This document shows, piece by piece, positions 11,601-32,998 of a stretch of 64,000 nt of DNA. This stretch comes from Deltaproteobacteria bacterium (GTDB lineage: Bacteria; Desulfobacterota; BSN033; UBA1163): NCBI GenBank assembly GCA_018333535.1, contig JAGXTA010000046.1:20551-84550 (forward strand), in the 5' to 3' direction. Numbering within the stretch: the stretch's first letter is position 1; every line of letters starts with the position of its first letter. The notes under the pieces were generated by a model. It was not told the DNA's origin. It worked only from the letters and a program-made list of their open reading frames with translations, and did not search any database. The translations under genes and the position numbers were made by a program.

Positions 11601-11644
11601 ACTGGTTATTAATTGGTGATTGGAATTTCAACTAAGGAGGACAA

Positions 11645-12540: not shown

Positions 12541-12751
12541 ATTTTAAGAACAAATGCTTTCTTACGATAAACAGTTGAAAATATTTTCCCAGCATCTCAG
12601 AAAAAATATTACAGAGATGTCTTTGAGAATATGGGCGGAGTGATGGAAGGGATATGGAGTTGCTTATGATTTACAAAATCTCCCCTGCCCCCTCTTTGCC
12701 AAAGAGGGGGAGAGAAAAACCAGATATGACCCACTCGATAGGGAAAAGATT

Positions 12752-18427: not shown

Positions 18428-18650
18428 CTGAAAACTGGAAAGCATAAAATAGATATCATGTTTACCCCGTTAGAAAGCCTCAGCATTCCTGCCTGTCGGC
18501 AGACAGGTATGCTGAGGATGGTAGAAATAGAAAGCATCCCTGCCTGCGGCAGGCAGGAGCTCCTTATTTAGGGCGAGGTCAAACCCCTGCCCTTTCTGAC
18601 GGGGTTTACTCGCCCTCAATCTGAATCTCAATCTTTTTGGGTTTCTCGCA
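18428..18650. repeat. Direct repeat DR2 (about 223 bp) overlapping the authentic 3' end of mobB
   Basis: See DR1. Together the repeats bracket the hicAB cassette. Confidence 0.75.
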
Positions 18651-19256
18651 TCCCTTCAATGAACGGACCATTCCCTTAATCGACCCTAACAGGAAATCTC
18701 TGATAAAAGGTTTTAACGGAACGGCCCTGTCATCTACCCTTAGAGTGATTTGTTCTTCCTTTTTTGACTTTAAAAACTTCTTTTCGATAAAATCACCCAC
18801 TCCTTTGACATCATCAAGAAAGAAGCAGGAGACCCCGACATTGAACTCCTTGTCCGATACAATGGCGATGAGGTTATCCTCTTTGGTGCAGAGAAGCTCC
18901 TTGTGCTTTTCCGTTCTGAAGATTTCGATCTTCGGTTGGACATCCTTTTTGTAGCCCTCTGAAAGAATAAGGTCTACATCCTGAACCAACTTGTCCCGGA
19001 TTTCATCCAACCGTAAATCCTTCTCCACATCCCGGATCAGCGCCACTTTGGCAGGAGAGGAGATGATCGTTGTATGGGCGCCTGCCTGCTTATGCCGCCA
19101 GCTATCCTTCCCCTCCCGGTCCACCTCAAACCCGTGAACATCGTGCTTCACGGTTGCGATCCGGTAACCCCTGCGGACTAGCTCAGGCAAAAGTTTCTCG
19201 ATAAATGTGGTCTTTCCGCTATCTGACTTACCAACAATAGAAATGATGGGAATCAC
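18606..19256 (-). CDS. mobB: Molybdopterin-guanine dinucleotide biosynthesis adapter protein MobB
   Basis: IVGKSDSGKTTFIEKL...VKH Walker-A region. Probable GTG start with RBS AAAGGAG 6 nt upstream. The ORF track extends a further 25 codons upstream. Confidence 0.85.
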   Translation of the reverse strand: MIPIISIVGKSDSGKTTFIEKLLPELVRRGYRIATVKHDVHGFEVDREGKDSWRHKQAGAHTTIISSPAKVALIRDVEKDLRLDEIRDKLVQDVDLILSEGYKKDVQPKIEIFRTEKHKELLCTKEDNLIAIVSDKEFNVGVSCFFLDDVKGVGDFIEKKFLKSKKEEQITLRVDDRAVPLKPFIRDFLLGSIKGMVRSLKGCEKPKKIEIQIEGE

Positions 19257-19262
19257 GCTAAA

Positions 19263-19375
19263 CTCCTTTGGAATATTGGAATGTTGGAACAATGGAATAA
19301 TGGGGAAGGCTGAGAAGATTCTTTTCGACACAACATTCCATCATTCCATAATTCCATTCTTCCATGATCAAAAGT
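19263..19375. promoter_or_regulatory. Array of inverted TGGAAT/ATTCCA repeats between moeA and mobB
   Basis: GGAATATTGGAATGTTGGAACAATGGAATAATGG faces CATTCCATCATTCCATAATTCCATTCTTCC. This is either a long imperfect hairpin or an array of protein-binding sites. Confidence 0.45.
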
Positions 19376-20582
19376 TTCGTTCCAGCAATTGCACCTTCAC
19401 TTTCTCCCCTGCCCTGACAATCTCTTGGCTTTCGGGGATGACGATAAGGCCATTGGCCCTGACCATGGATCTCAATATCCCTGACCCCTGTGGACCTGTC
19501 GTTGTCACCGAATAGCCGTCGTTTTCAAATGAGACCATGGCCCGGATAAAATGTTTTTTCCCCGGCTCTTTACGAATTTCCTCCTTTAGAACAGCCTCGA
19601 TAACAGGCTGAAAGATTTGCCGATGGCCCATCATCTTCAAGAGCGATGGCCTTACAAACTGTTCAAAGGTGATCATGGAGGAAACAGGGTTTCCCGGAAG
19701 GCTGAAGGCTGGCTTCTTATCAAACATCCAGAAAGCCACGGGTTTCCCTGGTTTCATTGCGACTCTCCAGAATATCATCTCCACGCCCAGTTCCTTCAGG
19801 ACATCCCTGACGAAATCATAATCCCCTACGGAGACACCCGCTGACGAAATAAAAACATCAGACCGAAGCCCCTGAAGAATCTTCTTTTTAATCTCATCTT
19901 TTTGGTCTTTCGCAATTCCCAATTGAATCGGGATCGCTCCGCACTCCCTGACCTGGGCGGCCAATGTGTAGGAATTGCTGGAGACAATCTTCACCCCATC
20001 CAGGCTCTCACCCACATCCACCAGTTCCTCACCAGTACAGAGGACCGCCACTGATGGCCTTTGATAAACCGAGACGAATGACCTTCCCATAGAGGCAAGC
20101 ATCCCGATTTCTGATGGACGGATGATATCCCCTTTGGTGATCACCCGATCTCCCCTCTTTACATCCTCCCCTGCCCTTCGGATGTACCCACCGGGAAAAC
20201 CAGCCTTCAGAATGATGACAAAACCGTTTCCCCTTTCCGTCTCCTCAACAGGCACAACCGCATCAGCGCCTTTTGGGATGGGGGCGCCGGTCATAATTCT
20301 TATGGCCTGACCCTTTTGGACTGTTTTTTCCGAAATGAATCCAGCGCGAAGATCTTCAATCACTTCTAAGCGGACAGGATTCTTTTCAGAAGCATCCGGA
20401 ATATCTTCATACCTGACCGCATAACCGTCCATCCCCGAATTATCATAAGGGGGAAGATCACGAGGGGCAATCATATCCTCCGCAATCACCCGGCCCAGGG
20501 CATCCAGAATGGATACCTTCTCAAACCCCATGGGCTGGATGTGAGAAAGGGTTTTATCTAAGGCTTCTTCTACGGTGATCAT
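19368..20582 (-). CDS. moeA: Molybdopterin molybdotransferase MoeA
   Basis: 404 aa. MoeA N-terminal and MoCF-biosynthesis domains. SGMDGYAV motif. Confidence 0.9.
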   Translation of the reverse strand: MITVEEALDKTLSHIQPMGFEKVSILDALGRVIAEDMIAPRDLPPYDNSGMDGYAVRYEDIPDASEKNPVRLEVIEDLRAGFISEKTVQKGQAIRIMTGAPIPKGADAVVPVEETERGNGFVIILKAGFPGGYIRRAGEDVKRGDRVITKGDIIRPSEIGMLASMGRSFVSVYQRPSVAVLCTGEELVDVGESLDGVKIVSSNSYTLAAQVRECGAIPIQLGIAKDQKDEIKKKILQGLRSDVFISSAGVSVGDYDFVRDVLKELGVEMIFWRVAMKPGKPVAFWMFDKKPAFSLPGNPVSSMITFEQFVRPSLLKMMGHRQIFQPVIEAVLKEEIRKEPGKKHFIRAMVSFENDGYSVTTTGPQGSGILRSMVRANGLIVIPESQEIVRAGEKVKVQLLERNF

Positions 20583-20697: not shown

Positions 20698-20726
20698 TTG
20701 ACAAGTTATGAGCATATGCTTATAAT
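20698..20726 (+). promoter_or_regulatory. Consensus sigma-70 promoter whose spacer contains the palindrome AGCATATGCT
   Basis: TTGACA at 20698-20703, a 17-nt spacer, then TATAAT at 20721-20726. About 25 nt upstream of the DUF134 ATG. Lies in the divergent region with moeA. Confidence 0.6.
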
Positions 20727-20750
20727 TTAGCCTAAAAGTGGGTAATTTGA

Positions 20751-21227
20751 ATGGCAAGGCCAAGACATTGCAGGCGAGTAGAGTGTATTCCTGGAAGCAG
20801 ATACTTTAAACCCAGAGGTATCCCTCTTTCTTCATTAGAGGAAGTCATTTTAACTGTTGATGAATTCGAGGCTATCAGACTGGCTGACCTTGAGGGTTTA
20901 TATCAGGAGCAGGCAGCAGAAAAGATGAACATTTCTCGCCAAACCTTTGGAAGGATTATCGAATCAGCACATCAAAAGGTGGCCGATGCGTTGGTTCAGG
21001 GGAAGGCATTAAAGATTGAAGGAGGTGAGTTTGAAATGGCAGAGAGGAGAAAGTTTAAATGTTATGACTGCCAACACACCTTGGAACTTCCTTACGGAAC
21101 GGGTAGACCGGAGAATTGTCCTTCCTGCAAAAGTGGCAACATTCGCAGAGCAGAAGAAGACAGGGGGAGTGCAAGAGGTTTTGGCAATAGGCAAAAGAGG
21201 GATTGTTTTCGATCTCAGGCAAAATAG
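20751..21227 (+). CDS. DUF134 (UPF0251) family predicted DNA-binding protein with a C-terminal zinc ribbon
   Basis: Hallmark N-terminus MARPRHCRRV. The C-terminus has CYDCQ...CPSCKSG. Confidence 0.8.
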   Translation: MARPRHCRRVECIPGSRYFKPRGIPLSSLEEVILTVDEFEAIRLADLEGLYQEQAAEKMNISRQTFGRIIESAHQKVADALVQGKALKIEGGEFEMAERRKFKCYDCQHTLELPYGTGRPENCPSCKSGNIRRAEEDRGSARGFGNRQKRDCFRSQAK

Positions 21228-21292
21228 CAATGAAGAAAACATTATCGAAGCGTGACAAAATAAATGGACACCCAATAAGAAAGGAGAAAATC

Positions 21293-21532
21293 ATGAAAGT
21301 AGGTTTTGCAGTTCAGACGAACGAAGGAATGGAAAGCAGGGTTTATGATCATTTTGGCTCGGCCCCGGCATTCATCATTGTCGATACCGAAGGGAAAGAG
21401 GTCTTAACAATTAATAATAAGGACTTGCACCATCTTCACGGCGCATGCAATCCAATCATGGCGCTTGATGGGAAGAGCGTCGATGCAATGGTCGTGGGTG
21501 GCATAGGAGCAGGCGCATTGACGAAGTCAGAC
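21293..21532 (+). pseudogene. NifX/NafY-like (dinitrogenase FeMo-cofactor biosynthesis domain) gene, N-terminal fragment interrupted by an IS200/IS605 insertion
   Basis: RBS AAGGAGA. MKVGFAVQTNEG...HFGSAPAFIIVD...MVVGGIGAGAL matches the intact paralogs at 25201 and 25587. The sequence after GAGALTK diverges into IS-end hairpins. Confidence 0.7.
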
Positions 21533-22170
21533 ACCCCCCGCAAAGCGGGTGGCTTGATGAGCGGGGCTGCCTCAAAGGCAGTCGACCCGATAGCTAAACG
21601 TTGCGCTAAAGCGCACCTCAGTTGCCAAATTAAAAATGTTCTCCCGTTCCATCCGCTTCCTCTTGATCGCGGATGTATTGGCGAACTTGCTCTATCTGAA
21701 ATCCAACGGTGGATACCGCATATCCCCGAGCCCAAAGATGTTCCCCTGTGAAATTCCTCTCCTTGCCGCATAGCTGCCTTGAGATCGCAATCGCACTCTT
21801 CCCTTTCAAAAAACCGATCACAGAAGCAACCGCATACTTTGGGGGAATCGCAATACACACATGAACATGATCGGGCATCAGATGACCTTCCAGAATTTGG
21901 CATTCTTTCTGCCGAGCCAAGGCATGAAATATTTCACCTAGGTGGCGTCGTGCCTGCCCAAACAGGGCTCTCCGTCTCTTCTTTGGGATAAACACCACAT
22001 GGTATTTGCAATCCCATTTCGAATGAGATAAGCTTCGATAACCCTGAAAACTTTCTTCCATAACATCCTCCTGTGCCGTTTGCTTTTCTCATCAAGCCAC
22101 GGGAGGATGTTATGCTCAACGGTCAAACCTTTTCAAGTCGCACTGGTAAAACCAGTGGCTTACCTAAATT
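21533..22170. mobile_element. IS200/IS605-family insertion sequence (TnpA only)
   Basis: Contains the HuH Y1 transposase ORF. Subterminal hairpins CCCGCaaaGCGGG, CTGCCtcaaaGGCAG and TGCGCtaaaGCGCA lie at one end, and CACTGGtaaaaCCAGTG at the other. The element splits the NifX-like gene. Confidence 0.8.
21630..22061 (-). CDS. tnpA: IS200/IS605 family transposase TnpA (HuH Y1)
   Basis: 143 aa with SKWDCKYHVVFIPKKRR and the HVHVCIAIPPKY HuH motif. Confidence 0.9.
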   Translation of the reverse strand: MEESFQGYRSLSHSKWDCKYHVVFIPKKRRRALFGQARRHLGEIFHALARQKECQILEGHLMPDHVHVCIAIPPKYAVASVIGFLKGKSAIAISRQLCGKERNFTGEHLWARGYAVSTVGFQIEQVRQYIRDQEEADGTGEHF

Positions 22171-22324
22171 CGAGTTAAACGCATCGGGGATAAGAGTATA
22201 CGGAGCCGGGGCTTCAACCGTAAAAGAAAACCTTTTCCTATTAAGCGAAAATAAGCTCCAGGAGCTTTCGGCGTACAATGCCTGCCGAGCCCATCAGGGC
22301 GGATGCGGACATCAACAAGAATAG
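22166..22324 (+). pseudogene. NifX-like gene, C-terminal fragment displaced by the IS insertion
   Basis: ELNASGIRVYGAGASTVKENLFLLSENKLQE aligns with ALSASGIKVYLVPGGTIREVTEAFKDGKLQE of the paralog at 25587. Confidence 0.65.
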
Positions 22325-22353
22325 TTTGTGAATCAGACAGTTGAGGAATCTTC

Positions 22354-23691
22354 GTGAAAGGGAAAGAGCCGGATAAATTTTTTAATGTCATTCTCAATAG
22401 CATTGCCGATGGGGTGTTCACCACCGACAATGATGGCAAAATCACCTTTATGAATAAAGCTGCTGAGGAGATTACGGGATTTTCGAATAAGGAGGCTATC
22501 GGCCGTTACTGCTTTGACATCTTTCGGGCAGATATCTGTCAGACCAGATGTGCGTTGAAAGAAACCCTCCAGACAAAAAAAGAGATCATCAATCTCAATG
22601 CTACCATTTTGAAGAAGGGAGGCCAAAAAGTCCCCATCAGTATTAGCACTGCTGTATTGAAGAATGAGCGAGGACAAATCATAGGAGGAGTTGAAACCTT
22701 TCGGGATCTCTCTGTCATTGAAGAACTTAAGAAAGAACTCGCCGAAAAATATTCGATTGGCGATATCATAAGTAAAAATCACCTGATTTATGACATCTTC
22801 AACATTCTTCCCGATGTCGCAGAGAGCGATAGCACGGTTCTGATTCAAGGGGCCAGCGGCACGGGAAAAGAGCTTTTTGCAAAGGGCATTCACCATTTGA
22901 GCCGGAGAAAAGAAAAACCTTTCATCAAGGTAAATTGTGGCGCCCTTCCGGATACTCTCCTTGAGTCGGAACTCTTCGGGTACGTCAAGGGAGCCTTTAC
23001 GGATGCGAAAAAAGACAAACCGGGAAGGTTTGCCCTGGCCAACGGGGGAACCTTATTTCTCGATGAGGTAGGGGATATGTCCCCTTCCCTTCAGGTGAAG
23101 TTGCTTCGTGTTCTCCAAGAAAAAGAGTTCGAACCCCTGGGTTCGACGAGTCCCAGAACAACCGATGTCCGAATCATTGCGGCCACCAACAAAGACCTTT
23201 TAAAACTGATGGAAATAGGAAAATTCAGGGACGACCTCTTTTACCGGATCAATGTGGTGAAAATCGAGCTTCCTCTCCTTTCACAGAGAAAGGAGGACCT
23301 CCCCCTGCTCATTGATAGCTTTATTAGGAAATTCAACGCAAAGATGGGAAAACGCATCACCAGGGTATCCGATCAGGCCTTAAGGGTTCTTTTGCGATAT
23401 GATTATCCCGGGAATGTGAGAGAACTTGAAAATATCCTGGAGCATGCCTTTGTTCTCTGTAGGGGAAATCTGATCGATCTTGATTGTCTTCCAAAAGAAA
23501 TGACAGGTGACCAAACGGAAATCGCCTCCTCTTTGCTAACCGATGAGAAGAACCCTCTCGATCAAGCCGAGGCAGAAACCATCCGGCAGGTGTTGAAGAA
23601 ATATGGAGGAGACCGAACCAAAGCAGCCAACGAATTGAGTGTCGGCCGCACAACCCTCTGGAGGAAAATGAAAAAGTATCGGCTTGCCTGA
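22354..23691 (+). CDS. Sigma-54-dependent transcriptional activator with an N-terminal PAS domain and a C-terminal Fis-type HTH
   Basis: PAS region (FNVILNSIADGVFTTDNDGKITFMN), AAA+ sigma-54 interaction domain (GASGTGKELFA...GAFTDA...ESELFG) and C-terminal HTH (RTKAANELSVGRTTLWRKM). Confidence 0.85.
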   Translation: MKGKEPDKFFNVILNSIADGVFTTDNDGKITFMNKAAEEITGFSNKEAIGRYCFDIFRADICQTRCALKETLQTKKEIINLNATILKKGGQKVPISISTAVLKNERGQIIGGVETFRDLSVIEELKKELAEKYSIGDIISKNHLIYDIFNILPDVAESDSTVLIQGASGTGKELFAKGIHHLSRRKEKPFIKVNCGALPDTLLESELFGYVKGAFTDAKKDKPGRFALANGGTLFLDEVGDMSPSLQVKLLRVLQEKEFEPLGSTSPRTTDVRIIAATNKDLLKLMEIGKFRDDLFYRINVVKIELPLLSQRKEDLPLLIDSFIRKFNAKMGKRITRVSDQALRVLLRYDYPGNVRELENILEHAFVLCRGNLIDLDCLPKEMTGDQTEIASSLLTDEKNPLDQAEAETIRQVLKKYGGDRTKAANELSVGRTTLWRKMKKYRLA

Positions 23692-23841
23692 AGGTGCTGA
23701 GACTGGCCTGTCTCATTCTAGCAACTGTTTCATTCAATCCGTTTCATTTATGAAACACAATAAAATCTCCCTTCTTTTCCCCCATAACTTGCATCTCCTC
23801 TAACCTTTTGATATCTCATCTTTTTTATTAAAGCTGATGTT

Positions 23842-23856
23842 TGGCACCTATCTTGC
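23842..23856 (+). promoter_or_regulatory. Sigma-54 (-24/-12) promoter TGGCAC-N5-TTGCT
   Basis: Exact match to the core consensus. It sits 14-20 nt upstream of the two candidate start codons of the NifB/NifX-like gene and directly downstream of the sigma-54 activator gene. Confidence 0.5.
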
Positions 23857-23875
23857 TCTTAATAAGCTCATGGAG

Positions 23876-24256
23876 ATGAAGATTGCAATTCCACTTTTTG
23901 GAACTCGGATTTCACCCCGTTTTGACTTCTCCCAAGAGATTCGGATCATTACGGTAGAGGATGGGAAAGTGGTCCGGAAAGAGAACTTCCCGGTTGCTCA
24001 TCTTAACCTCAGTCAGCGTCTCGACCAATTGGCTTCCAACGGAGTGAGCAAGGTGATTTGTGGCGGAATTGATGGATTCTGCTTAAATCAATTGGGAAGT
24101 AAAGGGATTGAGGTTGTCCACAATGTGGCAGGAGAGGCTGAAATCGCCTCCGACCTTTTCATGAAAGGAAAGCTTCGGACAGGCTTTTGCTGTGAAGGAA
24201 GAGGAAGAAGACGTTTTTGTGTTTGGAAGAAAGGTTCCAGAGGAAGGAGGATATAA
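23876..24256 (+). CDS. NifB/NifX-like dinitrogenase FeMo-cofactor biosynthesis domain protein with a Cys-rich tail
   Basis: MKIAIPLFGTRISPRFDFS...VICGGI...GIEVV. The C-terminus has FCCEGRGRRRFC. The alternative ATG at 23870 is in frame. Confidence 0.75.
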   Translation: MKIAIPLFGTRISPRFDFSQEIRIITVEDGKVVRKENFPVAHLNLSQRLDQLASNGVSKVICGGIDGFCLNQLGSKGIEVVHNVAGEAEIASDLFMKGKLRTGFCCEGRGRRRFCVWKKGSRGRRI

Positions 24257-25204
24257 ATGGCCGAAGAAAAATGTAAAAAAGATGCAGTCTGCGATACCTG
24301 TAACGAATCCAGCTCTTGCAGTCAGCAGGAAAAAGAGGCCCATGCCCAGGAGAGATTGAAATCGAAACTCTCGCATATCCAACATCGAATCATGGTGATG
24401 AGCGGAAAGGGCGGCGTCGGGAAAAGTACCGTATCGACTAATTTGGCTGTTGCACTATCTCTGGATGGGTTCAACGTCGGGCTCCTCGATGCGGACATTC
24501 ATGGCCCCAACATTCCCAAGATGCTTGGAATTGAATCCAAGCATGTGGAGGGATCAGACAAGGGGATGATTCCGGTTGAGGTCTTTCCGAACTTGAAGGT
24601 CATTTCCATGGCCTTTTTCATCGGTGATCGGGATAATCCAGTGGTCTGGAGAGGTCCCCTTAAGCATGGCGCCATCAGCCAATTTCTTGGAGAAGTGGAC
24701 TGGGGAAACCTCGATTTTCTCGTCGTCGATCTTCCTCCTGGGACGGGGGATGAACCGTTAAGTGCAGCTCATCTCATTAAGAATGTGGATGGCTCTATTA
24801 TCGTAACCACTCCTCAGGATGTTGCCCTGCTCGATTCTCGAAAGGCTGTTACCTTCAGTCGGATGCTCAGTATTCCTGTGATTGGGATTGTTGAAAACAT
24901 GAGTGGATTGGAATGTCCTCACTGCCATAAAGAGATTCCTCTTTTTAAGATCGGTGGAGGAGAAAAGGCTGCCCGTGACATGAAGGTTCCCTTTCTTGGA
25001 AGGATCCCTATCGATTCAGAGATGGTTATCGATTGTGATAGAGGAATGCCGTTTGTTATGGCTCATCCAAAATCGGAGGCAGCTAAGGCCTTTAAGGAGA
25101 TAGCCCACCGCTGTAAGGAGTATGTGGGATTCAAGGAGACAGAGAAACAATCTGAAAGGGAAAAATTTCCCTATCATTTCAAAGAACAGGAGGTGAAGAG
25201 ATGA
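24257..25204 (+). CDS. mrp: Mrp/NBP35 (ApbC) family Fe-S cluster carrier ATPase
   Basis: Walker A SGKGGVGKST, CPHCHKEIPLF cluster-binding motif and N-terminal CDTCNESSSC. Confidence 0.9.
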   Translation: MAEEKCKKDAVCDTCNESSSCSQQEKEAHAQERLKSKLSHIQHRIMVMSGKGGVGKSTVSTNLAVALSLDGFNVGLLDADIHGPNIPKMLGIESKHVEGSDKGMIPVEVFPNLKVISMAFFIGDRDNPVVWRGPLKHGAISQFLGEVDWGNLDFLVVDLPPGTGDEPLSAAHLIKNVDGSIIVTTPQDVALLDSRKAVTFSRMLSIPVIGIVENMSGLECPHCHKEIPLFKIGGGEKAARDMKVPFLGRIPIDSEMVIDCDRGMPFVMAHPKSEAAKAFKEIAHRCKEYVGFKETEKQSEREKFPYHFKEQEVKR

Positions 25205-25590
25205 AAAGAATTGCATTAGCTTCTGAAGATGGTTCTGGCCTCGATGGATTGCTGAGTGCCCATTTTGGCAGATGCCCTTTCTATACCTTTGTCAATGTGG
25301 AAGGAGATCGGATTCTGGGATCTGAAGTAGTCAAGAATCCTTACTTTCCAAACCATACACCGGGAGTCATTCCCGAGTTTATCCATTCACAAAAGGCGAA
25401 TGTGATGATCGCAGGAGGAATGGGGCCGAGGGCCATCGACTTTTTCACCCAATTTGGGATTGACGTCGCTACAGGGGCCCAGGGGAAAGTGAAGGATATT
25501 GTTGAGGCCTATTTGAGAGGCGAAATTCAGGGAATCGTTGCTTGTGAGCATCACGGGCATGATCATGAATGTCAGGAGGAGAAACGATGA
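25201..25590 (+). CDS. NifX-like dinitrogenase FeMo-cofactor biosynthesis domain protein
   Basis: MKRIALAS...HFGRCPFYTFVNV...MIAGGMGPRAIDFFTQFGIDV. Start overlaps the mrp stop. Confidence 0.8.
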   Translation: MKRIALASEDGSGLDGLLSAHFGRCPFYTFVNVEGDRILGSEVVKNPYFPNHTPGVIPEFIHSQKANVMIAGGMGPRAIDFFTQFGIDVATGAQGKVKDIVEAYLRGEIQGIVACEHHGHDHECQEEKR

Positions 25591-26126
25591 AAGTTGCTGT
25601 CAGCGCAACAGGAAAAGACCTCAATTGCCAAATCGATCCAAGGTTTGGAAGATGCCAGTATTTTATCTTTATCGATCCTGAGACCATGGAGTTTGATGCC
25701 TTTGGGAATGAAGGGTTAATGGCAATGGGTGGTGCCGGGGTTCAGGCCGCACAGCTTATTGTCCAAAAAGGGGCAAGCGCTCTGATTACGGGCAATCTTG
25801 GACCCAATGCCGCTTCAGCTCTCTCAGCATCAGGAATCAAAGTCTACTTAGTTCCTGGAGGGACAATAAGGGAAGTTACCGAAGCATTCAAGGATGGAAA
25901 ACTTCAGGAGGCAAGTGGGCCTACGGTTCCTCCTCATTTTGGAATATCCCCTTCTCCATCCCTCTCCCCCAAGAGACTGTGTCGTAATTCCGTTCATGGT
26001 TCGAGAGCCTCACCACGAACGGATTATGACATGTTGAAAATCAATCACTTAGCCGTTCGTCCTGAGCGTGTCGAAGGGCGAATGGCTAATTATGACACAG
26101 TCTCCAAGGGGAGAGGGCGAGGGTGA
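25587..26126 (+). CDS. NifX-like domain protein with a low-complexity C-terminal tail
   Basis: MKVAVSATGKDLNCQIDPRFGRCQYFIFID...ITGNLGPNAASAL...GIKVY. The last about 200 nt are highly structured DNA, so the true C-terminus is uncertain. Confidence 0.65.
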   Translation: MKVAVSATGKDLNCQIDPRFGRCQYFIFIDPETMEFDAFGNEGLMAMGGAGVQAAQLIVQKGASALITGNLGPNAASALSASGIKVYLVPGGTIREVTEAFKDGKLQEASGPTVPPHFGISPSPSLSPKRLCRNSVHGSRASPRTDYDMLKINHLAVRPERVEGRMANYDTVSKGRGRG

Positions 26127-26257
26127 GGGGGAGTATGGGTGGCCGTAGAGGTTAAAGAACGAATATTACGAATAGCTACGAATTATTCGAATAAAATCCT
26201 TTCGTTAAATTCGGTACCATTTGAATAATTCGCCTGTGAAAGAAAGGAAGGATAATT

Positions 26258-26470
26258 ATGCCTTACGGAATGGGACCTGCTGGATGGAGACACCATCCTT
26301 ATGGATATGGGAGAGGCTGGTGTTGGAACCCCGGGTCGTACGGAGCGCCTGTTCCACCATGGGGATCTCCAACCAAAGAAGATGAAATCCGATTTCTTGA
26401 AGAGGAAGCCAATTTCCTTCGAGGAGAGTTAGGCCAGATTGAAAAAAGGCTCGACGAACTGAAAAAATAA
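26258..26470 (+). CDS. DUF5320 family small protein, paralog 1
   Basis: Gly/Pro/aromatic-rich N-terminus (MPYGMGPAGW...GYGRGWC). C-terminal coiled helix (EEEANFLRGELGQIEKRLDELKK). RBS GGAAGG. Confidence 0.65.
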   Translation: MPYGMGPAGWRHHPYGYGRGWCWNPGSYGAPVPPWGSPTKEDEIRFLEEEANFLRGELGQIEKRLDELKK

Positions 26471-26478
26471 AAATGCTT

Positions 26479-26615
26479 TAGGGTAAAGGTTAGGAAGCCG
26501 GTTTAGTATTTGGTCATAGGGTTACGGCTTAAAAATTTTAAGCCCCGACTACGTAACCCTTTAACGAAACCGGCATCTTAACCCTAACCTTCCGACTAAC
26601 GACTTTTATTCGAAG
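26479..26615 (+). other. Nested palindromic RNA/DNA structure between DUF5320 paralogs
   Basis: The outer arms TTAGGGTAAAGGTTAGGAAGCCGGTTT and AAACCGGCATCTTAACCCTAACC enclose AGGGTTACG-[GCTTAAAAATTTTAAGCC]-...CGTAACCCT. Confidence 0.4.
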
Positions 26616-26628
26616 GGAGGTGTTTTCT

Positions 26629-26889
26629 ATGCCAGGATTTGATGGAACAGGGCCACGAGGGATGGGCCCAATGACTGGAGGAGGCAGAGGCTTTTGTGCA
26701 ATGCCAAACAGAGGCTACGGTCCATCCGGGTATAGCATGCAGGCACCTTATTATCCACCTTCCGGTGGTTATCCATTTTATGGAAGATCATTTTCCGGCC
26801 CCGTCTTTGGCGCAGGCCGTGATGGCCTCCCATGGGGTGGAGGCCGCGGAAGATGTTTTGGTGGCGGGCGAGGGTTCCGTCGTTGGTAG
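26629..26889 (+). CDS. DUF5320 family small protein, paralog 2
   Basis: MPGFDGTGPRGMGPMTGGGRGFC hallmark. RBS GGGAGGTG. The ORF track begins at an upstream GTG at 26620. Confidence 0.7.
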   Translation: MPGFDGTGPRGMGPMTGGGRGFCAMPNRGYGPSGYSMQAPYYPPSGGYPFYGRSFSGPVFGAGRDGLPWGGGRGRCFGGGRGFRRW

Positions 26890-27047
26890 TGGCAATTTGT
26901 AGTGATTGCATGGGGGCCATCGATGGAACCCAACCCCCTAACCCCTTTAGGGGAGAAGGGAGACCTGCCTACCGGCAGGCATGGGGAGTATTTCTTGCGC
27001 TATACTCTGTGCGCTATGCGGTTTTGTAGGTATAGGAGGTGATAAAA

Positions 27048-27278
27048 ATGCCAAGAGGAGACGGAAAATGTCCCCCCGGAGGCAGTGGTCCAGGAACAGG
27101 AAGGGGTGCCGGAATGGGTGGATCTCGTAAGGGAAGAATGGGTGGTTCCAAAGCAGGTGCAGGCCCTGGAGGAGAATGTATGTGTCCAAAATGCGGGACG
27201 ACTGCTCCTCATGAGGCTGGAGGGCCTTGTTCATTTAAGAACTGCCCGAAATGCGGTGCAAAGATGGTGAGAAAATAA
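27048..27278 (+). CDS. DUF5320-like small protein, paralog 3, with a C-terminal CxxC...CxxC zinc ribbon
   Basis: MPRGDGKCPPGGSGPGTGRGAGMGG... followed by CPKCG...CPKCG. RBS TAGGAGGTG. Confidence 0.65.
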   Translation: MPRGDGKCPPGGSGPGTGRGAGMGGSRKGRMGGSKAGAGPGGECMCPKCGTTAPHEAGGPCSFKNCPKCGAKMVRK

Positions 27279-27300
27279 TTTATTCGATAAGAAAACGAAA

Positions 27301-27777
27301 TTGGATTTAAAAATAGGGGAATCCATGAATGAAATGTTGACCGGTCAAAAAAGGCAGGGAGAAGTCAATCTACACAGAAATTGTTTTGCCTGTGGTTCAA
27401 ATGTCGGAATAGGTTTAGGACTAAAGTTTTATAAGAATGAAGATGGAGCTGTCTTCGGAAGTTTCTTTGCAGATTCGAAGTTTGAAGGTTATTCGGGCAT
27501 CATTCATGGAGGAATTATAGCTACTCTGTTGGATTCTGCGATGACCCACTGTCTCTTAATGAAAGATATCCCTGCCCTCACGGGAAGATTGTCGATCAAG
27601 TATTCTACCCCCATTCGAACAGGAACAGTTGTGAAGTTAGAAGCAAGGATTGTTGACCAAGTCCATGAAATGTTCATTTTACAAGGGAAGGCTTGGGTGG
27701 ATGGGAAGAAGGTGGCAAGTGCAGAGGCCAAATATAGGAGCATGAAAAGAAGGGGCAATCAAGAGGCGAAGAAATGA
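27301..27777 (+). CDS. PaaI/hotdog-fold thioesterase family protein
   Basis: GIIHGGIIATLLDSAM motif and length. Confidence 0.75.
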   Translation: MDLKIGESMNEMLTGQKRQGEVNLHRNCFACGSNVGIGLGLKFYKNEDGAVFGSFFADSKFEGYSGIIHGGIIATLLDSAMTHCLLMKDIPALTGRLSIKYSTPIRTGTVVKLEARIVDQVHEMFILQGKAWVDGKKVASAEAKYRSMKRRGNQEAKK

Positions 27778-27992
27778 CGCTTTTCCCATCTAAGGATCCT
27801 TCTTTAGAAAATAAATTGATCGGGAATATTCTAAGGGAATATCCCCGGATGGCCAGGATCATGGAAAGATATTTTGGTGGACATTGCCTGGAAAGGTCTG
27901 GCTTTAAGATCCAGACACTCGGGATGGCCTGCATCCTATTCGGCGTCGATCAGAAGCAGTTGCTTCAAGAATTTGAGAAAATCCAAAATTGA
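27774..27992 (+). CDS. DUF1858 domain protein (hybrid-cluster-protein-associated redox disulfide-like)
   Basis: IGNILREYPRMARIMERYFGGHCLERSGFKIQTLGMACILFGVD matches the DUF1858 pattern (Y-P...HC...C...TL.EA....G.D). Confidence 0.6.
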   Translation: MTLFPSKDPSLENKLIGNILREYPRMARIMERYFGGHCLERSGFKIQTLGMACILFGVDQKQLLQEFEKIQN

Positions 27993-28951
27993 TAGACATG
28001 ACAAAAAACCCAAGTGGCCCGAAATACATCTTTGGACCGGTTCCTTCCAGAAGATTGGGAAGATCCTTGGGAGTCGATCTTGTCCCATATAAAACCTGTA
28101 CCTTTGATTGCATCTATTGCGATTTGGGAAGGACCACTTTTAAAACAACCTCTCGAAAATCTTATGTATCAACTGAGGAAGTCCAAAGGGAACTGGATCT
28201 TACTTTATCTCCCTTAGAAAAGAAGCCAGATTACATTACTCTCTCCGGGTCAGGGGAGCCCACATTGAATCAAAATATTGGAGATATCATCCACACCATC
28301 AAGCATTGGACTTCTATCCCTGTGGCAGTTCTAACGAACGGCTCTCTCCTCTCTATCGAAGAAGTCAGAAAAGATTTAATTGATGCCGATGTGGTTTTGC
28401 CTTCTCTCGATGCCATCAACGACGTGACTTTCCAGTGTTTGAACAGACCTCACCCGTCGTTAAAAATAGATGAAATCATTTTGGGTCTCATTCAATTTCG
28501 AAATCAGTATCGAGGCCAAATCTGGCTCGAAGTGGTCTTTTGCAGAGGGATAAACGACGATAAAGAGGAGATTGAAAGACTCAAAGGGATCATCGAAAGA
28601 ATCCAGCCCGATAGGGTTCAATTGAACACACCCGTCAGGCCGCCTGCTGAAGAATTTGCTTATCCCTTAACAACAACTCAGATTGAAGAAATAAGGAAAA
28701 AATTGGGAGATAAGGCGGAGATTATTTCTGAATTTACTGCTCCCCTGGGAGAAGAATTTAACTCCGTGAAGGATACAGAGATTCTTAACTTGATCAAGAG
28801 AAGACCTTGCACAACGGAAGATATTTCTAAAGCTCTTGGACTCCGTATAGATGAAGTTGTGAAGCATTTAGATCATCTTACAAAAACAGGGCCAATCCGA
28901 TATCGAATGTATGAGCACCATTGTTATTACGAGTTTAATGTAACTAATTGA
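27989..28951 (+). CDS. Radical SAM protein (COG0731-like) with a C-terminal winged-helix-like region
   Basis: CTFDCIYCDLG CX3CX2C motif near the N-terminus. 320 aa. Confidence 0.8.
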   Translation: MIDMTKNPSGPKYIFGPVPSRRLGRSLGVDLVPYKTCTFDCIYCDLGRTTFKTTSRKSYVSTEEVQRELDLTLSPLEKKPDYITLSGSGEPTLNQNIGDIIHTIKHWTSIPVAVLTNGSLLSIEEVRKDLIDADVVLPSLDAINDVTFQCLNRPHPSLKIDEIILGLIQFRNQYRGQIWLEVVFCRGINDDKEEIERLKGIIERIQPDRVQLNTPVRPPAEEFAYPLTTTQIEEIRKKLGDKAEIISEFTAPLGEEFNSVKDTEILNLIKRRPCTTEDISKALGLRIDEVVKHLDHLTKTGPIRYRMYEHHCYYEFNVTN

Positions 28952-29023
28952 AAAAACCCTCCCCTTTTCCCCTCTCCCTGCTGGGGATAGGGTAAGGGTG
29001 AGGGGTGACAGGTAACGAAGATC

Positions 29024-29890
29024 ATGATCATTTCAATCGCAAGCGGGAAAGGAGGGACCGGAAAGACCACCATCGCCGTTAATTTAGCTCTCTCTCTATC
29101 AAAAGGGACTGTCCAACTAATTGATTGCGATGTGGAGGAACCTAATTCCCACCTTTTTCTATCCCCCACCATCCACCAGGTTACCTCTATGGGAATTCCG
29201 GTCCCCCGAATTGATGAATCAAAATGTACATATTGCGGCAAATGTGGAAAGGTCTGTGAATACCATGCAATTGCTGTCATTTTGAAAAACGTTCTGGTTT
29301 TCGACGAGCTCTGCCACGGATGCGGTGCCTGCTCTTACTTATGCCCAGAAAAAGCCATATTCGAAGTGGAAAGAGAGATTGGAATTGTCCAGGAAGGAAG
29401 TGCGGATGGAATTCCATTCGTTAATGGAGTTCTTAATATTGGAGAACCCATGGCTTCTCCACTGATCCGGAAGGTAAAGGAGAGTATTCAAAAGGATAAA
29501 ACCGTCATTCTCGATGCCCCTCCAGGGACAGCCTGCCCTGTTATTGAAACCGTCAAAGGAAGTGATTTTTGCGTCCTCGTTACAGAGCCGACCCCCTTTG
29601 GGCTGAATGATTTAGAGTTAGCTGTAGGAATGTTGGAAAAATTAGGAATTTCGATGGGAGTTGTAATCAACAAGGCGGATGTTGGGGACCGAGAAGTCTG
29701 GGATTACTGCCAATCGAAAAATATCCCTATTTTAATGGAAATTCCCATGGATCGGAGGATTGCTGAATCCTATTCAAGGGGAGTTCCAATTGTTGTCGAA
29801 TATCCTTCTTACAAGCAGGGATTCAAAGGTCTATTTGAAAAGGTGGAGAAACTCCATGAGTCAAGTCGAAGAAATGGAGCAGTTAAGTGA
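29024..29890 (+). CDS. MinD/ParA-type P-loop ATPase with a 2x[4Fe-4S] ferredoxin insert
   Basis: Walker A ASGKGGTGKTT, then CTYCGKCGKVCEYHA and CHGCGACSYLCP ferredoxin motifs. Confidence 0.85.
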   Translation: MIISIASGKGGTGKTTIAVNLALSLSKGTVQLIDCDVEEPNSHLFLSPTIHQVTSMGIPVPRIDESKCTYCGKCGKVCEYHAIAVILKNVLVFDELCHGCGACSYLCPEKAIFEVEREIGIVQEGSADGIPFVNGVLNIGEPMASPLIRKVKESIQKDKTVILDAPPGTACPVIETVKGSDFCVLVTEPTPFGLNDLELAVGMLEKLGISMGVVINKADVGDREVWDYCQSKNIPILMEIPMDRRIAESYSRGVPIVVEYPSYKQGFKGLFEKVEKLHESSRRNGAVK

Positions 29891-30320
29891 TGAGGTGGGC
29901 TACCTCGTCTATAATGAAACGTTGATCGATCACTTTATGCATCCCAGAAATGCGGGAGAAATAGAAAACCCCGATGCAATGGCGACCGTTGGTGATCCTA
30001 CCTGCGGGGATTTTATTAGGGTGTACCTGAAGGTGGAAGCCGGGAAGATATCCGTCTTTAAATTTTTGACCCAGGGTTGTCCTGGAGCCATTTCCACTTC
30101 CAGCATTGCCACAGAAATGGCTATTGGTAAGACTCTCGATGAGGCGTTGAAATTGACAGACAACGATGTGATCGAAGCTGCCGGTGGCATCCCGTCAAGA
30201 AAAGCCCACTGCTCCCTTCTGGCAATCAGAGGATTGCATCAGGCCATTTTGAATTATCACACCTCATCCCATCCCTCGCCCCAAGAAGGAAGGGGGGAGG
30301 GTGAAGAGGAAAGGAAGTAG
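29856..30320 (+). CDS. NifU N-terminal/IscU-like Fe-S cluster scaffold domain protein
   Basis: HFMHPRNAG...GDPTCGD...TQGCPGAISTSSIATEM...GKTLDEA. RBS GGTGGAG. The C-terminal 17 aa are encoded by a G-rich REP element. Confidence 0.8.
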   Translation: MSQVEEMEQLSDEVGYLVYNETLIDHFMHPRNAGEIENPDAMATVGDPTCGDFIRVYLKVEAGKISVFKFLTQGCPGAISTSSIATEMAIGKTLDEALKLTDNDVIEAAGGIPSRKAHCSLLAIRGLHQAILNYHTSSHPSPQEGRGEGEEERK

Positions 30321-30323
30321 TAA

Positions 30324-31205
30324 GTGGAACAAAATGAAATTAAACAATTAGCCATTGTCAGTGGAAAAGGTGGAACAGGAAAAACCACTCTTGCTGCTGC
30401 TTTTGCCGCTTTAGCTAAGAATAAAGTGATGGTGGACTGCGATGTGGACGCGGCAGACCTGCATCTCTTGCTTCAGCCGAAGATCCTAATGCAAGAGAAG
30501 TACTTTGGGGGAAGATCACCGCATGTCGATTTGGATAAATGCACCCAGTGTGGGCTCTGTACTGAGGTATGCCGCTTCCATGCCATTGATAATGGGGTGG
30601 TTGATCCTGTTTCGTGTGAGGGGTGTGGCTTTTGTAGACACATTTGCCCTGAAGAAGCCATTGTGATGGAAGAGGCTTTTTCAGGAGATTGGTTTGTCTC
30701 CGAAACACCCTATGGTCCATTTGTCCATGCACGATTGGGAATAGGAGAGGAGAATTCCGGTAAACTCGTAACTGTCGTCCGAAAAAAAACGGTTGAGATT
30801 GCAAAAGAGAAGAACCTTGACCTCATACTGATCGACGGCCCCCCAGGCATCGGATGTCCGGTCACGGCCTCGTTGACCGGAGTGAATCTGGTCTTAGCCA
30901 TCACAGAGCCTACTCTTTCAGGAATTCATGATTTGGAAAGAATCTTGAAACTCTCCGATCACTTTAAAATTCCCTCGATGGTCTGCGTCAATAAATTCGA
31001 CATTAACCTTGAGAATACGGCCCAAATAGCATCCTACTGCAAGAAGAACGGTTCCCGCCTCATCGGTCAAATTCCTTACGAGCCAAAAGTGGTCGAGGCA
31101 CTGGTTCAAAGGAAGACAGTGATAGACTACCCTTGCAATGAAGTTCAGGGGATTTTGCTCAAGATGTGGCAGGGCATAGAGATGACTCTGCGGGGCGAAG
31201 CATGA
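30324..31205 (+). CDS. MinD/ParA-type P-loop ATPase with a 2x[4Fe-4S] ferredoxin insert (second paralog)
   Basis: Walker A VSGKGGTGKTT, then CTQCGLCTEVCRFHA and CEGCGFCRHICP. Confidence 0.85.
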   Translation: MEQNEIKQLAIVSGKGGTGKTTLAAAFAALAKNKVMVDCDVDAADLHLLLQPKILMQEKYFGGRSPHVDLDKCTQCGLCTEVCRFHAIDNGVVDPVSCEGCGFCRHICPEEAIVMEEAFSGDWFVSETPYGPFVHARLGIGEENSGKLVTVVRKKTVEIAKEKNLDLILIDGPPGIGCPVTASLTGVNLVLAITEPTLSGIHDLERILKLSDHFKIPSMVCVNKFDINLENTAQIASYCKKNGSRLIGQIPYEPKVVEALVQRKTVIDYPCNEVQGILLKMWQGIEMTLRGEA

Positions 31206-31942
31206 CCGAATACAAGAAATATTGTTATTGGTTGGATTCGAACAGGTTCACATTGGTCAAGAAAGTTCTTGAGGAAGAAGGGAATCAAGGGACCGATGAA
31301 ACTCATTTGCCATGTCGCGTCATCAAAACCTCGACGGAGCTGGGTTATATCGCCCCTTCTGCCTGGAACGGGTTCTGTAAAAGAAGAACTTCCTGGTATT
31401 GGAAGTCTGATAAGGCAGAAAAATTCCTGATTGTCAGTAACAAACCAATGGACATTGCAGGGCGTAAAGATCCAATTACGATTGTGGAGTCGAATTTCAA
31501 ACCCGATCGCTTACCTTCCGAGAAAGAGATTCTTGAATTGATCGAATTAGACGAATACCGCAAGAGAAAACCGAAGGGATGGGACAAGCCTGAGGCTATC
31601 GAAAAGGATTTCTACCAGATATACTTTGAGCGCTATGGGGCCACAGACTCTTTTGATTTCGAAAAACTCCTTAAATACCATTCGGCAAATCATGCCAATT
31701 TCATCGATCCTCAATTCTTCGAAAATATCAAGGGAGAAAAGGCGCCTTATTCGATTTCGGATAGCTTTTATGTCTGTTCCTCATGTCTTGAATTTTTCAA
31801 CATTCTGGGAGAAAAATGGCCAATCAAATATGTAGTGCCGTGCATTGGTGCGGTTAAGTTTGCTGGCCTTCCAATGAACCATTATTTTGAAGTCAAAACT
31901 TTTGGGGCCGTTAACTCAGATGGTAGAGTATCTGCCTTTTAA
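31202..31942 (+). CDS. Hypothetical protein (246 aa, no recognisable domain). The 3' end overlaps tRNA-Lys.
   Basis: Long ORF starting at MTEYKKY, overlapping the stop of the upstream gene. Its last 38 nt run into the tRNA and the stop codon falls in the anticodon loop, so the true 3' end is uncertain. Confidence 0.45.
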   Translation: MTEYKKYCYWLDSNRFTLVKKVLEEEGNQGTDETHLPCRVIKTSTELGYIAPSAWNGFCKRRTSWYWKSDKAEKFLIVSNKPMDIAGRKDPITIVESNFKPDRLPSEKEILELIELDEYRKRKPKGWDKPEAIEKDFYQIYFERYGATDSFDFEKLLKYHSANHANFIDPQFFENIKGEKAPYSISDSFYVCSSCLEFFNILGEKWPIKYVVPCIGAVKFAGLPMNHYFEVKTFGAVNSDGRVSAF

Positions 31943-31977
31943 GCAGAGAGTCGTGGGTTCGAGTCCCGCACGGCCCA
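31905..31977 (+). tRNA. tRNA-Lys (anticodon UUU)
   Basis: Manual cloverleaf fold. Acceptor stem GGGCCGT/ACGGCCC (7/7 bp). D arm ACTC/GAGT. Anticodon stem TCTGC/GCAGA with loop CTTTTAA. T arm GTGGG-TTCGAGT-CCCGC. Discriminator A. CCA is not encoded. Confidence 0.85.
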
Positions 31978-31989
31978 CTATTCTAATAA

Positions 31990-32641: not shown

Positions 32642-32713
32642 GTATGGCACTTCTACGGTTCTTTTCTTAAGAGGGTGTTCGGGTAGTAAAAAGATAAAAA
32701 GGAGGTGAAAACC

Positions 32714-32998
32714 ATGTTATCAAATATACCCATCAATCTTGAGCTTGTTGGAAAGGGAGACACGGACAAAGAAATACTAAGGGCCGGGGTCATCGCGGAA
32801 CTGGACGCTATCAACCTTTACGAACAAATGGCCGCCATGGCCAAAGATAAGAATCTCAAAAAAATTCTGCTTGATATAGCCAAAGAAGAGAAAACTCATG
32901 TCGGAGAATTCCTGACACTGCTCCTGAGAAAAGACGGAGAGCAAGAAGCGGAGCTAGAAAAGGGAAAAAAAGAGGTTGAAGAGTTGATGGAAAAGTAG
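32714..32998 (+). CDS. Ferritin-like/rubrerythrin-like small protein (EncFtn-like)
   Basis: ELDAINLYEQMA...IAKEEKTHVGEF, with the E..H di-iron ligand pattern. Strong RBS AAGGAGGTG. An alternative GTG lies at 32705. Confidence 0.6.
   Translation: MLSNIPINLELVGKGDTDKEILRAGVIAELDAINLYEQMAAMAKDKNLKKILLDIAKEEKTHVGEFLTLLLRKDGEQEAELEKGKKEVEELMEK

Follow-up and report, generated by a model that had tools for sequence, protein, structure and literature searches.

What could a run of genes resembling those of nitrogenase cofactor assembly be doing where no nitrogenase is encoded? The question is raised by positions 20698-31978 of a 64,000-nucleotide stretch of contig JAGXTA010000046.1 from a deltaproteobacterium (the whole stretch is hereafter called the window). 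A preliminary description of this DNA had regarded the locus as uncharacterised and made of families without a defined function outside nitrogenase. This view does not stand, because the core of the run corresponds to the orp (orange protein) cluster with its activator OrpR, which has been under study since 2011 and for which a curated NCBIfam model of the MrpORP protein and a crystal structure of ORP exist. We consider it likely, from sequence comparison, that the locus is a Syntrophia/Syntrophaceae-type version of this cluster. The core, as recognised by homology, is composed of OrpR, an MrpORP split over two genes, ORP and two MinD-ferredoxin ATPases, and we read the locus as a variant of an already known system, enlarged and with a different wiring. 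Apart from that framing, the earlier idea of a dedicated, sigma-54-regulated system for metal-sulfur clusters agrees in its gist with published data on the homologous Desulfovibrio system. In Desulfovibrio vulgaris Hildenborough the orp cluster comprises DVU2103-DVU2109, encodes the Orp3/Orp4/Orp5/Orp8/Orp9 complex and is arranged as two divergent sigma-54 operons under the control of OrpR (DVU2106) and IHF (PMC3897727, PMC6345978, PMC8359166).

The probable orp/OrpR core and its relatives

Genes were defined by Pfam and NCBIfam profile scans together with comparison with related loci, which are taken from metagenome contigs and designated by L numbers (L004 is a 400-kb contig). The gene at 22354-23691 (+) encodes a putative OrpR-type sigma-54 enhancer-binding protein (EBP), in which Pfam recognises PAS, AAA+ and Fis-type HTH (HTH_8) domains. 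In its translation the PAS domain contains C53-x-D55-x6-C62-x3-C66, with the same spacing as in OrpR and in the activator of locus L154; in OrpR, residues C52, D/E54, C61 and C65 bind a redox-sensing [4Fe-4S] cluster (PMC8359166). The sigma-54 contact loop of the AAA+ domain is the rare GAFTDA, within ...GYVKGAFTDAKKD... of the translation, and DVU2106 is also tabulated with GAFTDA (PMC4641369). As in D. vulgaris, an activator of PAS(Cys triad)-AAA+(GAFTDA)-HTH architecture thus stands beside its own sigma-54 target. The sequence itself recurs on metagenome contigs, and homologues of the activator with at least 80% identity carry the labels Syntrophaceae or Thermodesulfobacteriota metagenome-assembled genomes (MAGs).

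MrpORP appears to be encoded by two genes that overlap by 4 nt. The Mrp/NBP35 ATPase (24257-25204, +; Pfam E=3.7e-99), which would be the P-loop half of MrpORP (Orp9), aligns with profile positions 1-261 of the MrpORP model NF041136 at 369.8 bits, while ApbC gets 238 bits. The product of NifX-like gene 3 (NifX3; 25201-25590, +), the putative Di-Nase half, aligns with positions 266-364 at 79.1 bits, in register with the Mrp half, and the two scores sum to 448.9 bits against a cut-off of 450. In the PDB, NifX3 matches PH0822 (2YX6, E=7.5e-24) and TM1290 (1T3V, E=3e-22). Mrp shares the deviant Walker A GKGGVGKS and the bridging CXXC (here CPHC) with Nbp35/Cfd1 of eukaryotes and ApbC/Mrp of bacteria, and has four N-terminal cysteines (C6, C12, C15 and C21). 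This C-x5-C-x2-C-x5-C arrangement presumably resembles the CX2CX5C part of the N-terminal cluster motif of Nbp35. Unlike Nbp35/Cfd1 and ApbC/Mrp, the Mrp of the window is part of a dedicated operon that also encodes a scaffold and putative targets.

The split MrpORP is preceded by NifX-like gene 2 (NifX2; 23870-24256, +; PF02579 E=2.5e-6), whose product has a Cys-rich basic tail, and followed by the homologue of the orange protein (Orp8; NifX-like gene 4, 25587-26126, +), which overlaps NifX3 by 4 nt. Residues 6-119 of the ORP-like protein match D. gigas ORP (PDB 2WFB, E=1.6e-20), and 1RDU and 1EO1 match too. Both MinD-ferredoxin ATPases (MinD-Fd1, 29024-29890, +; MinD-Fd2, 30324-31205, +) are CbiA/MinD proteins by Pfam with an insert for two [4Fe-4S] clusters, of the Orp3/Orp4 type; each has GKGGTGKT and two CxxCxxCxxxC motifs, and they are 34% identical to each other. 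Their last 25 residues have computed hydrophobic moments of 0.60 and 0.59, versus 0.38 for the E. coli MinD tail, and the C-terminus of MinD-Fd1 is GFKGLFEKVEK. The locus therefore resembles that of D. vulgaris in having Mrp with a NifX-type domain, an ORP homologue and two MinD ATPases with two [4Fe-4S] motifs each, in an anaerobic host and without nitrogenase genes.

Metagenome contigs were scanned with the published OrpR operator GGGCGYRTTTTGCGCCC, and 120 loci were returned. Four of these (L154, L176, L194 and L155) encode homologues of the window activator, ORP, Mrp and both MinD-Fd proteins, with identities of 46-50% for the EBP, 43-47% for Mrp, 36-42% for ORP and 42-46% for the MinD-Fd proteins (42-44% for MinD-Fd1 and 45-46% for MinD-Fd2). 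Locus L154 (65% G+C) has two operators 1.65 kb apart around the activator gene, divergent operons and a fused 487-aa Mrp+NifX protein, which, as read from its gene arrangement, corresponds to the layout published for D. vulgaris. In the L154 activator, cysteines occupy positions 52, 61 and 65, together with D54 and GAFTDA, and the proteins of this locus are 46% (activator, residues 13-441), 43% (Mrp), 36% (NifX3 domain), 40% (ORP), 42% (MinD-Fd1) and 46% (MinD-Fd2) identical to those of the window. Locus L176 (72% G+C) has the same operator and is co-oriented like the window, in the order OrpR, NifX2, Mrp, ORP, MinD-Fd, MinD-Fd, NifX3. The presence of these homologues in loci fished with the operator argues that the window carries an orp/OrpR locus.

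A second scan, of genome contigs with an OrpR alignment, returned mostly unrelated EBPs among at least 80 matches listed. Five loci among 80 matches listed have an activator at least 50% identical over its full length (L006, from a Planctomycetota MAG; L007, from a Spirochaetia MAG; L008; L009; L011), and a NifX2-type gene lies directly 3' of the activator in all five, as opposed to none of the 75 others among the matches listed. Such a gene follows the EBP in seven of seven orthologous loci examined. Between activator and NifX2, loci L006-L009 and L011 have a GG-N10-GC site with at least 8 of 11 sigma-54 consensus matches, which in L007 overlaps the listed ORF start, and a sigma-54-like site is found in this position in L004-L009 and L011. 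Among further genes, L006 has DUF89, ORP, the radical SAM enzyme and NifX3, and L011 has a ferritin, ORP, a DUF89/ARMT1 protein, MinD-Fd, a Zn-ribbon, a radical SAM enzyme (47%), FeoB, a MinD-Fd::NifU fusion and NifX3. By homology, some of the genes absent from the Desulfovibrio-type loci do recur beside OrpR-like activators in distant lineages. The fusion is a single 433-aa ORF (L011 18463-19764) composed of a MinD-ferredoxin ATPase and NifU_N (profile positions 2-84 of 127), and links scaffold and ATPase.

Regulation, gene order and insertions

The preliminary description had noticed a PAS sigma-54 activator together with a perfect TGGCAC-N5-TTGC, and both are present. The latter (23842-23856) is the window's only strong intergenic sigma-54 site, and the promoter TGGCACctatcTTGCT (23842-23857, +) is kept in L004 and L005. 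A second sigma-54 promoter was sought upstream of DUF134 and upstream of the MinD-Fd genes and was not found. A candidate upstream activator site (UAS; 23710-23756, +) has GTYTCAT half-sites at 23710, 23727 and 23741 and the palindrome GTTTCATTTATGAAAC (23741-23756), which lies about 94 bp upstream of the -24 element, has a single perfect copy in the window and belongs to a site conserved in L004 and L005. This palindrome is a candidate activator site in the place expected for the operator, which in D. vulgaris is GGGCGYRTTTTGCGCCC; judging from these sequences, OrpR-type regulators would recognise different operators in different lineages. Between palindrome and promoter, a putative IHF-like site (23801-23813, - strand) was read off the sequence, where TATCAAAAGGTTA fits the consensus WATCAANNNNTTR; it is kept in L005 and not in L004. 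An IHF-like site between UAS and promoter would be another similarity to D. vulgaris, whose orp promoters require IHF (PMC3897727).

The ATG of NifX2 (23870), conserved in L004 and L005, lies 13 nt past the -12 GC, with no space for a Shine-Dalgarno sequence. This spacing suggests that the sigma-54 mRNA is leaderless or nearly so. An ORF starting at 23837 (23837-24256) was rejected as the gene, since the sigma-54 promoter would lie inside it and the conserved ATG is at 23870. In L008, L009 and L011 normal leaders are seen, unlike the NifX2 arrangement of the window, L004 and L005.

A second promoter, of the sigma-70 consensus type (TTGACA-17-TATAAT, 20698-20726, +), is the sole 12/12 match of the promoter scan and contains in its spacer the palindrome TTATGAGCATATGCTTATAA (20706-20725). 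Both promoter and spacer hardly vary among the DUF134 upstream regions of four independent loci (the window, L004, L005 and L086), whose flanks differ. Near-invariance amid unrelated flanks makes TTATGAGCATATGCTTATAA a candidate operator, plausibly for the HTH protein DUF134 itself, and the conserved palindrome suggests autorepression. From the promoter arrangement, DUF134, NifX-like gene 1 (NifX1) and orpR are read as a separate unit transcribed from the sigma-70 promoter, a unit that the preliminary description had overlooked. Palindromes of this type are found at about 8106 in L004, 8984 in L005 and 7775 in L086.

The wiring hence differs from that of D. vulgaris in several respects: the genes of the window are all on the + strand and not in two divergent operons flanking orpR, there is one sigma-54 promoter plus a sigma-70 unit (DUF134, NifX1, orpR), MrpORP is represented by two overlapping genes, the first sigma-54 gene is apparently leaderless, and about nine additional conserved genes are present. 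That the listed genes form a co-oriented run, as described before, was confirmed, and their order is kept in L004 and L087. In fact the entire gene order is retained in these two loci (with one extra radical SAM/SPASM gene in L004), whose proteins are 56-91% identical to those of the window. Order and orientation are also kept in L005, and partial sets are found in L006, L011, L154, L176 and L194. The order shared by L004 and L087 indicates an arrangement beyond chance. Neighbouring coding sequences share 35 nt at MinD-Fd1/NifU and 4 nt at each of Mrp/NifX3, NifX3/ORP, 4HBT/DUF1858 and MinD-Fd2/246-aa. Terminator prediction gave three + strand candidates in the run, all of them inside coding sequences, and none in the intergenic gaps.

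Two genes of the run have been damaged by insertions, neither of which was mentioned in the preliminary description. NifX1 (TM1290-like, +) is interrupted, its 5' part lying at 21293-21527 and its 3' part at 22173-22312 according to Pfam and the L005 alignment, and the Pfam match of the 5' part spans only profile positions 2-69 of 94. It is split by a 645-bp IS200-type element (21528-22172, - strand) with a Y1 transposase gene (21630-22061, 143 aa, PF01797 E=1.8e-34) and a terminal hairpin (22059-22114). The element is missing from L005, where NifX1 is intact (124 aa) and where 9551-9800 and 9798-9937 align with 21278-21527 and 22173-22312 of the window, respectively. The ORFs at 21779-21991 and 22073-22324 were rejected as genes, being the flank of the IS200 element and the displaced 3' end of NifX1. 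The IS200 insertion is also found on three metagenome contigs (L001-L003).

A second element, a small inverted-repeat insertion of about 160 bp (~25946-26117, no strand) resembling miniature inverted-repeat transposable elements (MITEs) or repetitive extragenic palindromes (REPs), has rewritten the 3' end of the ORP gene. It has 30-nt arms (25960-25989 and 26088-26117) that are 87% complementary, and it is missing from L087 and L004. The ORP gene is native to about codon 119 and continues with about 60 foreign codons (peptide ...LAVRPERVEGR...), giving 179 aa versus 121-138 aa in relatives; the native length was taken from the search with the ORP-like protein, in close relatives only. Hairpin-rich MITE/REP-like repeats were also seen at 26470-26607 and about 26900-27010.

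Some of these observations, together with a few others, weigh against the identification as an orp/OrpR locus and must be taken into account. The PAS motif C-x-[DE]-x6-C-x3-C was found in 67 of the 150 best EBP representatives, many of them of other architecture, so that it is necessary and not sufficient for OrpR identity; Fe-S-sensing PAS domains may, by this motif, be common among sigma-54 activators. The published operator GGGCGYRTTTTGCGCCC has no match in the window at three or fewer mismatches, and there is one sigma-54 promoter as opposed to two in D. vulgaris. MrpORP is split over two genes, each half under the equivalog cut-off; the MrpORP fusion arose several times, and fused and unfused forms are intermixed (PMC6345978). 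Hairpin-rich repeats occupy three intergenic gaps of the run, so that a single transcript to 31942 is putative, and the two insertions may be a sign of partial decay of the system in this genome. For about half of the genes, the Desulfovibrio cluster that has been studied offers no equivalent, which limits the borrowed mechanism to the core. Lastly, the support consists of sequence comparison and of experiments on homologues, none of them on the source organism.

Additional genes and possible working of the system

Compared with the Desulfovibrio type, the run has about nine more conserved genes, which encode DUF134, three Gly-rich small proteins, a 4HBT thioesterase, a DUF1858-like protein, a radical SAM enzyme, IscU and a 246-aa protein. 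DUF134, the radical SAM enzyme, IscU, the thioesterase, the DUF1858-like protein, the DUF5320 protein at 26258-26470 and the 246-aa protein were not found in the Desulfovibrio-type loci compared. Pfam recovered the DUF134 protein, the four NifX-like proteins, Mrp, the radical SAM enzyme, both MinD-ferredoxin proteins and the NifU-like protein that had been listed before. DUF134 (20751-21227, +; PF02001 E=2.6e-25), with an HTH and a C-terminal Zn-ribbon, is a putative DNA-binding regulator; it has weak matches to sigma-70 r4/HTH and Zn_ribbon_8 and is 74-80% identical in L004 and L005. An identity of DUF134 with Orp7 found no support, with no DUF134 match in the Desulfovibrio-type loci, and neither Orp7 nor Orp5, a small [2Fe-2S] protein, has an assigned counterpart in the window.

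Three DUF5320 proteins had been proposed, and one of them is firm: the small protein at 26258-26470 (+), with a coiled-coil C-terminus (PF17253 E=3e-8, 35 bits). The Gly-rich protein at 26629-26889 (+) has a weak DUF5320 N-terminal motif and is sub-threshold (21.4 bits), and the one at 27048-27278 (+), with a Zn-ribbon-like CxxC...CxxC tail, has no Pfam match and shares with DUF5320 proteins just the N-terminal MPxxDG..P.G.GP motif. In L011 a CxxC...CxxC tail is fused to NifX2. Identities to L004 are 83%, 79% and 91% for the three small proteins in this order, and 82% for the hotdog-fold (4HBT) thioesterase that follows (27325-27777, +; PF03061 E=3.2e-8). The next gene (27774-27992, +) had been assigned to DUF1858, and this similarity is seen in TIGR03980 (E=9.6e-6), while the Pfam match (PF08984) has 28.4 bits, under the gathering score of 32.2; the small protein, resembling ScdA_N and the hybrid-cluster-protein-associated redox disulfide domain, is conserved in L004. 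A search of the literature on DUF134 and DUF5320 found nothing relevant.

The radical SAM enzyme (27998-28951, +; PF04055 and PF21476) has CTFDCIYC and a C-terminal winged helix, and shares 71% identity with its L004 counterpart and 46-47% with those of L006 and L011. The NifB model is absent among its 17 NCBIfam matches at E<0.001. Its best NCBIfam match is MoaA, at 47.9 bits and far under the cut-off, and in the PDB MoaA alone was matched (E=3e-4). The IscU/NifU_N scaffold (29856-30320, +; PF01592 E=2.4e-34) has the three ligand cysteines in GDPTCGD, GCPGAI and HCS and is without the LPPVK motif; no cysteine desulfurase or HscAB was found in the window. Previously the run was thought to end at 31205, with the thioesterase unlisted. 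The conserved run goes beyond that point, to the gene of the 246-aa Cys/His-rich protein (31202-31942, +), which overlaps the MinD-Fd2 stop codon by 4 nt, and to a tRNA-Lys(UUU) (31905-31978, +; Rfam 70.4 bits, also found by ARAGORN), the 3' limit of the run. This tRNA overlaps the last 12 codons of the ORF, which are non-conserved and of low confidence.

The 246-aa protein is conserved in relatives; none of its 482 homologues bears a name, and eight of its Cys/His residues are invariant. It belongs to no Pfam family, and its AlphaFold model is confident, yet no similar solved structure was found. Its gene also follows MinD-Fd2 in L004 and L087, and in L086 a homologue ends a minimal DUF134-NifX-Mrp-X cluster. 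In the loci examined, this family of about 240 aa always adjoins Mrp/NifX/MinD-Fd genes.

What the system may do can be sketched from work on Desulfovibrio. OrpR activates only at low redox potential, via the [4Fe-4S] cluster of its PAS domain (PMC8359166). MrpORP has a bridging [4Fe-4S] cluster, which is handed to the MinD-ferredoxin proteins Orp3/Orp4 in vitro (PMC6345978). ORP homologues are cited in PMC6345978 as holding a Mo-Cu-S cluster non-covalently, and the ORP complex has been tentatively tied to cell morphology (PMC6345978, PMC8359166). By analogy, the OrpR of the window would hold a [4Fe-4S] cluster on its PAS cysteines and, at low redox potential, would act on the GTTTCAT palindrome, probably with the help of IHF, to open the sigma-54 promoter at 23842. 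This promoter would drive NifX2, Mrp, NifX3 and ORP, and probably also the genes from the Gly-rich proteins through the 246-aa protein as one long unit. The IscU-type scaffold would assemble Fe-S clusters and feed Mrp, and an Mrp dimer with its detached NifX-type partner would ferry [4Fe-4S] clusters to the two MinD-ferredoxin ATPases. Labile metal-sulfide clusters, either Fe-S or, like that of D. gigas ORP, Mo/Cu-S, could be held by ORP and the other NifX-family proteins, and ATP-dependent dimerisation of the MinD-Fd ATPases, perhaps at the membrane or cell pole, might be coupled to cluster delivery or use. The radical SAM enzyme, the thioesterase, the DUF1858-like protein and the small proteins would add a step that Desulfovibrio lacks or encodes elsewhere.

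A bolder proposal, which we regard as rather unlikely, is that the Syntrophia-type orp locus is a complete redox-gated assembly line for a non-standard metal-sulfide cluster, with IscU, a non-NifB radical SAM enzyme, five NifX-fold carriers and three SIMIBI ATPases, and with the 246-aa protein as client or terminal carrier. If true, it would give a concrete substrate to the ORP system, which occurs widely in strict anaerobes and whose cellular role is still unsolved after more than a decade of work. The extra co-conserved parts (scaffold, radical SAM enzyme and 246-aa family) are handles on what the system makes or serves, and for annotation a block of 'DUF' and 'NifX-like' labels becomes a named system.

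The locus has in common with the assembly of the nitrogenase iron-molybdenum cofactor (FeMo-co) an IscU/NifU_N scaffold, a radical SAM enzyme, NifX-fold carriers and SIMIBI-class Fe-S ATPases. A nitrogenase-independent heterometal-cluster pathway could thus be imagined on the lines of NifU -> NifB -> NifX -> NifH/NifEN, in which IscU supplies clusters, the radical SAM enzyme fuses or modifies them, the NifX-like proteins carry them, and MinD/Mrp insert them into a client, possibly the 246-aa protein. Besides the parallel in parts lists, it is favoured by the conservation, in the distant L006 and L011 (46-47%), of a cluster-linked radical SAM enzyme and IscU, by the MinD-Fd::NifU fusion and by the eight invariant Cys/His residues and constant Mrp/NifX company of the 246-aa protein. 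However, the ATPases of the window are of the MinD/Mrp type and not NifH, the regulator is a redox-sensing OrpR-type EBP and not NifA, and neither a NifB-type radical SAM enzyme nor NifDK, nor a NifEN-like scaffold or NifHDK-like client, is present in the window, of which Pfam scans covered roughly 80 ORFs; the preliminary description had named a nearby nitrogenase-like client as an alternative explanation. The radical SAM enzyme is weakly MoaA-like, with no SPASM or auxiliary-cluster motif seen, and Desulfovibrio-type orp loci do without a local radical SAM enzyme or IscU. According to PMC6345978 and its references, the clusters of the studied homologues are ordinary Fe-S ones, or a Mo-Cu-S cluster that reportedly self-assembles on ORP. 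With a non-NifB radical SAM enzyme and no nitrogenase-like client in the window, a FeMo-co-like pathway is a minority reading, and a rather doubtful one. Buffering or traffic of Mo/W thiometalates in a sulfidic cytoplasm, feeding molybdopterin cofactor synthesis, is unlikely. It would account for the ModA-type ABC transporter, MobB and MoeA directly upstream, for the MOSC protein (41348-41797) and the further MoCF_biosynth protein (55601-56650) downstream, and for the repetition of the ModABC-MobB-MoeA flank in L005, of MOSC in L087 and of FmdE in L086; D. gigas ORP, as cited in PMC6345978, bears a [S2MoS2CuS2MoS2] cluster. Yet the flank of L004 is a sugar ABC transporter with a GntR regulator, though a molybdopterin oxidoreductase is nearby, the signal of OrpR is redox potential and not Mo (PMC8359166), and there was no sign of a molybdenum cofactor (Moco) riboswitch or of a ModE site, the tRNA being the sole Rfam match.

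It has also been proposed, for the D. vulgaris ORP complex, that such MinD-like ATPases act in positioning or cell division, in which case the Fe-S parts of the window would just mature them. Morphological defects of orpR mutants, the polar location of MrpORP and a MinD-like C-terminal amphipathic helix on Orp3/Orp4 (PMC6345978, PMC8359166) point in this direction, as does the hydrophobic moment of the MinD-Fd1 tail (0.60, versus 0.38 for E. coli MinD). We find this very unlikely here, for the locus has no min, fts or par partners, the division role is 'putative' by its own authors, and five NifX-type holders, a scaffold and a radical SAM enzyme are difficult to account for if all they do is mature two ATPases. 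A chance juxtaposition of unrelated Fe-S genes has a negligible probability. Each family is common in anaerobes, but order and orientation are kept in L004, L005 and L087, partial sets occur in L006, L011, L154, L176 and L194, and coding sequences overlap or are fused, as in MrpORP and MinD-Fd::NifU. Lack of co-conservation, which the preliminary description held would disprove a common system, is contradicted by the gene order of L004 and L087, and the synteny results already refute chance.

Surroundings of the locus

The metal theme attributed earlier to the flanks is borne out by the genes themselves: a ModA-like ABC transporter (10545-13846), MobB (18606-19331, -), MoeA (19368-20582, -) and FeoB (51689-53614) are present. 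The Mo flank, however, is shared by the window and L005 and is not kept in L004, and is therefore suggestive only. Metal-homeostasis genes around the run lie at 32705-32998, 39273-39734, 41348-41797, 44510-45232, 51689-53614, 54127-55590 and 60551-63940; the types found are an EncFtn-like ferritin, two Fur-family regulators, MOSC, a DUF364/DUF4213 'heavy-metal chelation' protein, FeoB and two ABC-3/ZnuA-type transporters.

Downstream of the run, two AhpC/TSA peroxiredoxin genes (33132-33839 and 38474-39181, both +) have an in-frame TGA (33378-33380 and 38720-38722) at the peroxidatic Cys of DFTFVCPTE, and both probably encode selenocysteine peroxiredoxins. A low-GC stretch (14-18 kb, 41% G+C) that separates the Mo transporter from mobB contains a HicB-family antitoxin gene (18026-18355) and several short unannotated ORFs. 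At 2216-3750 (-), a ParA/Mrp-like ATPase gene adjoins that of a protein with a DnaJ domain and HTH_25, upstream of a radical SAM gene (4022-5029), and the pair is also found in L005.

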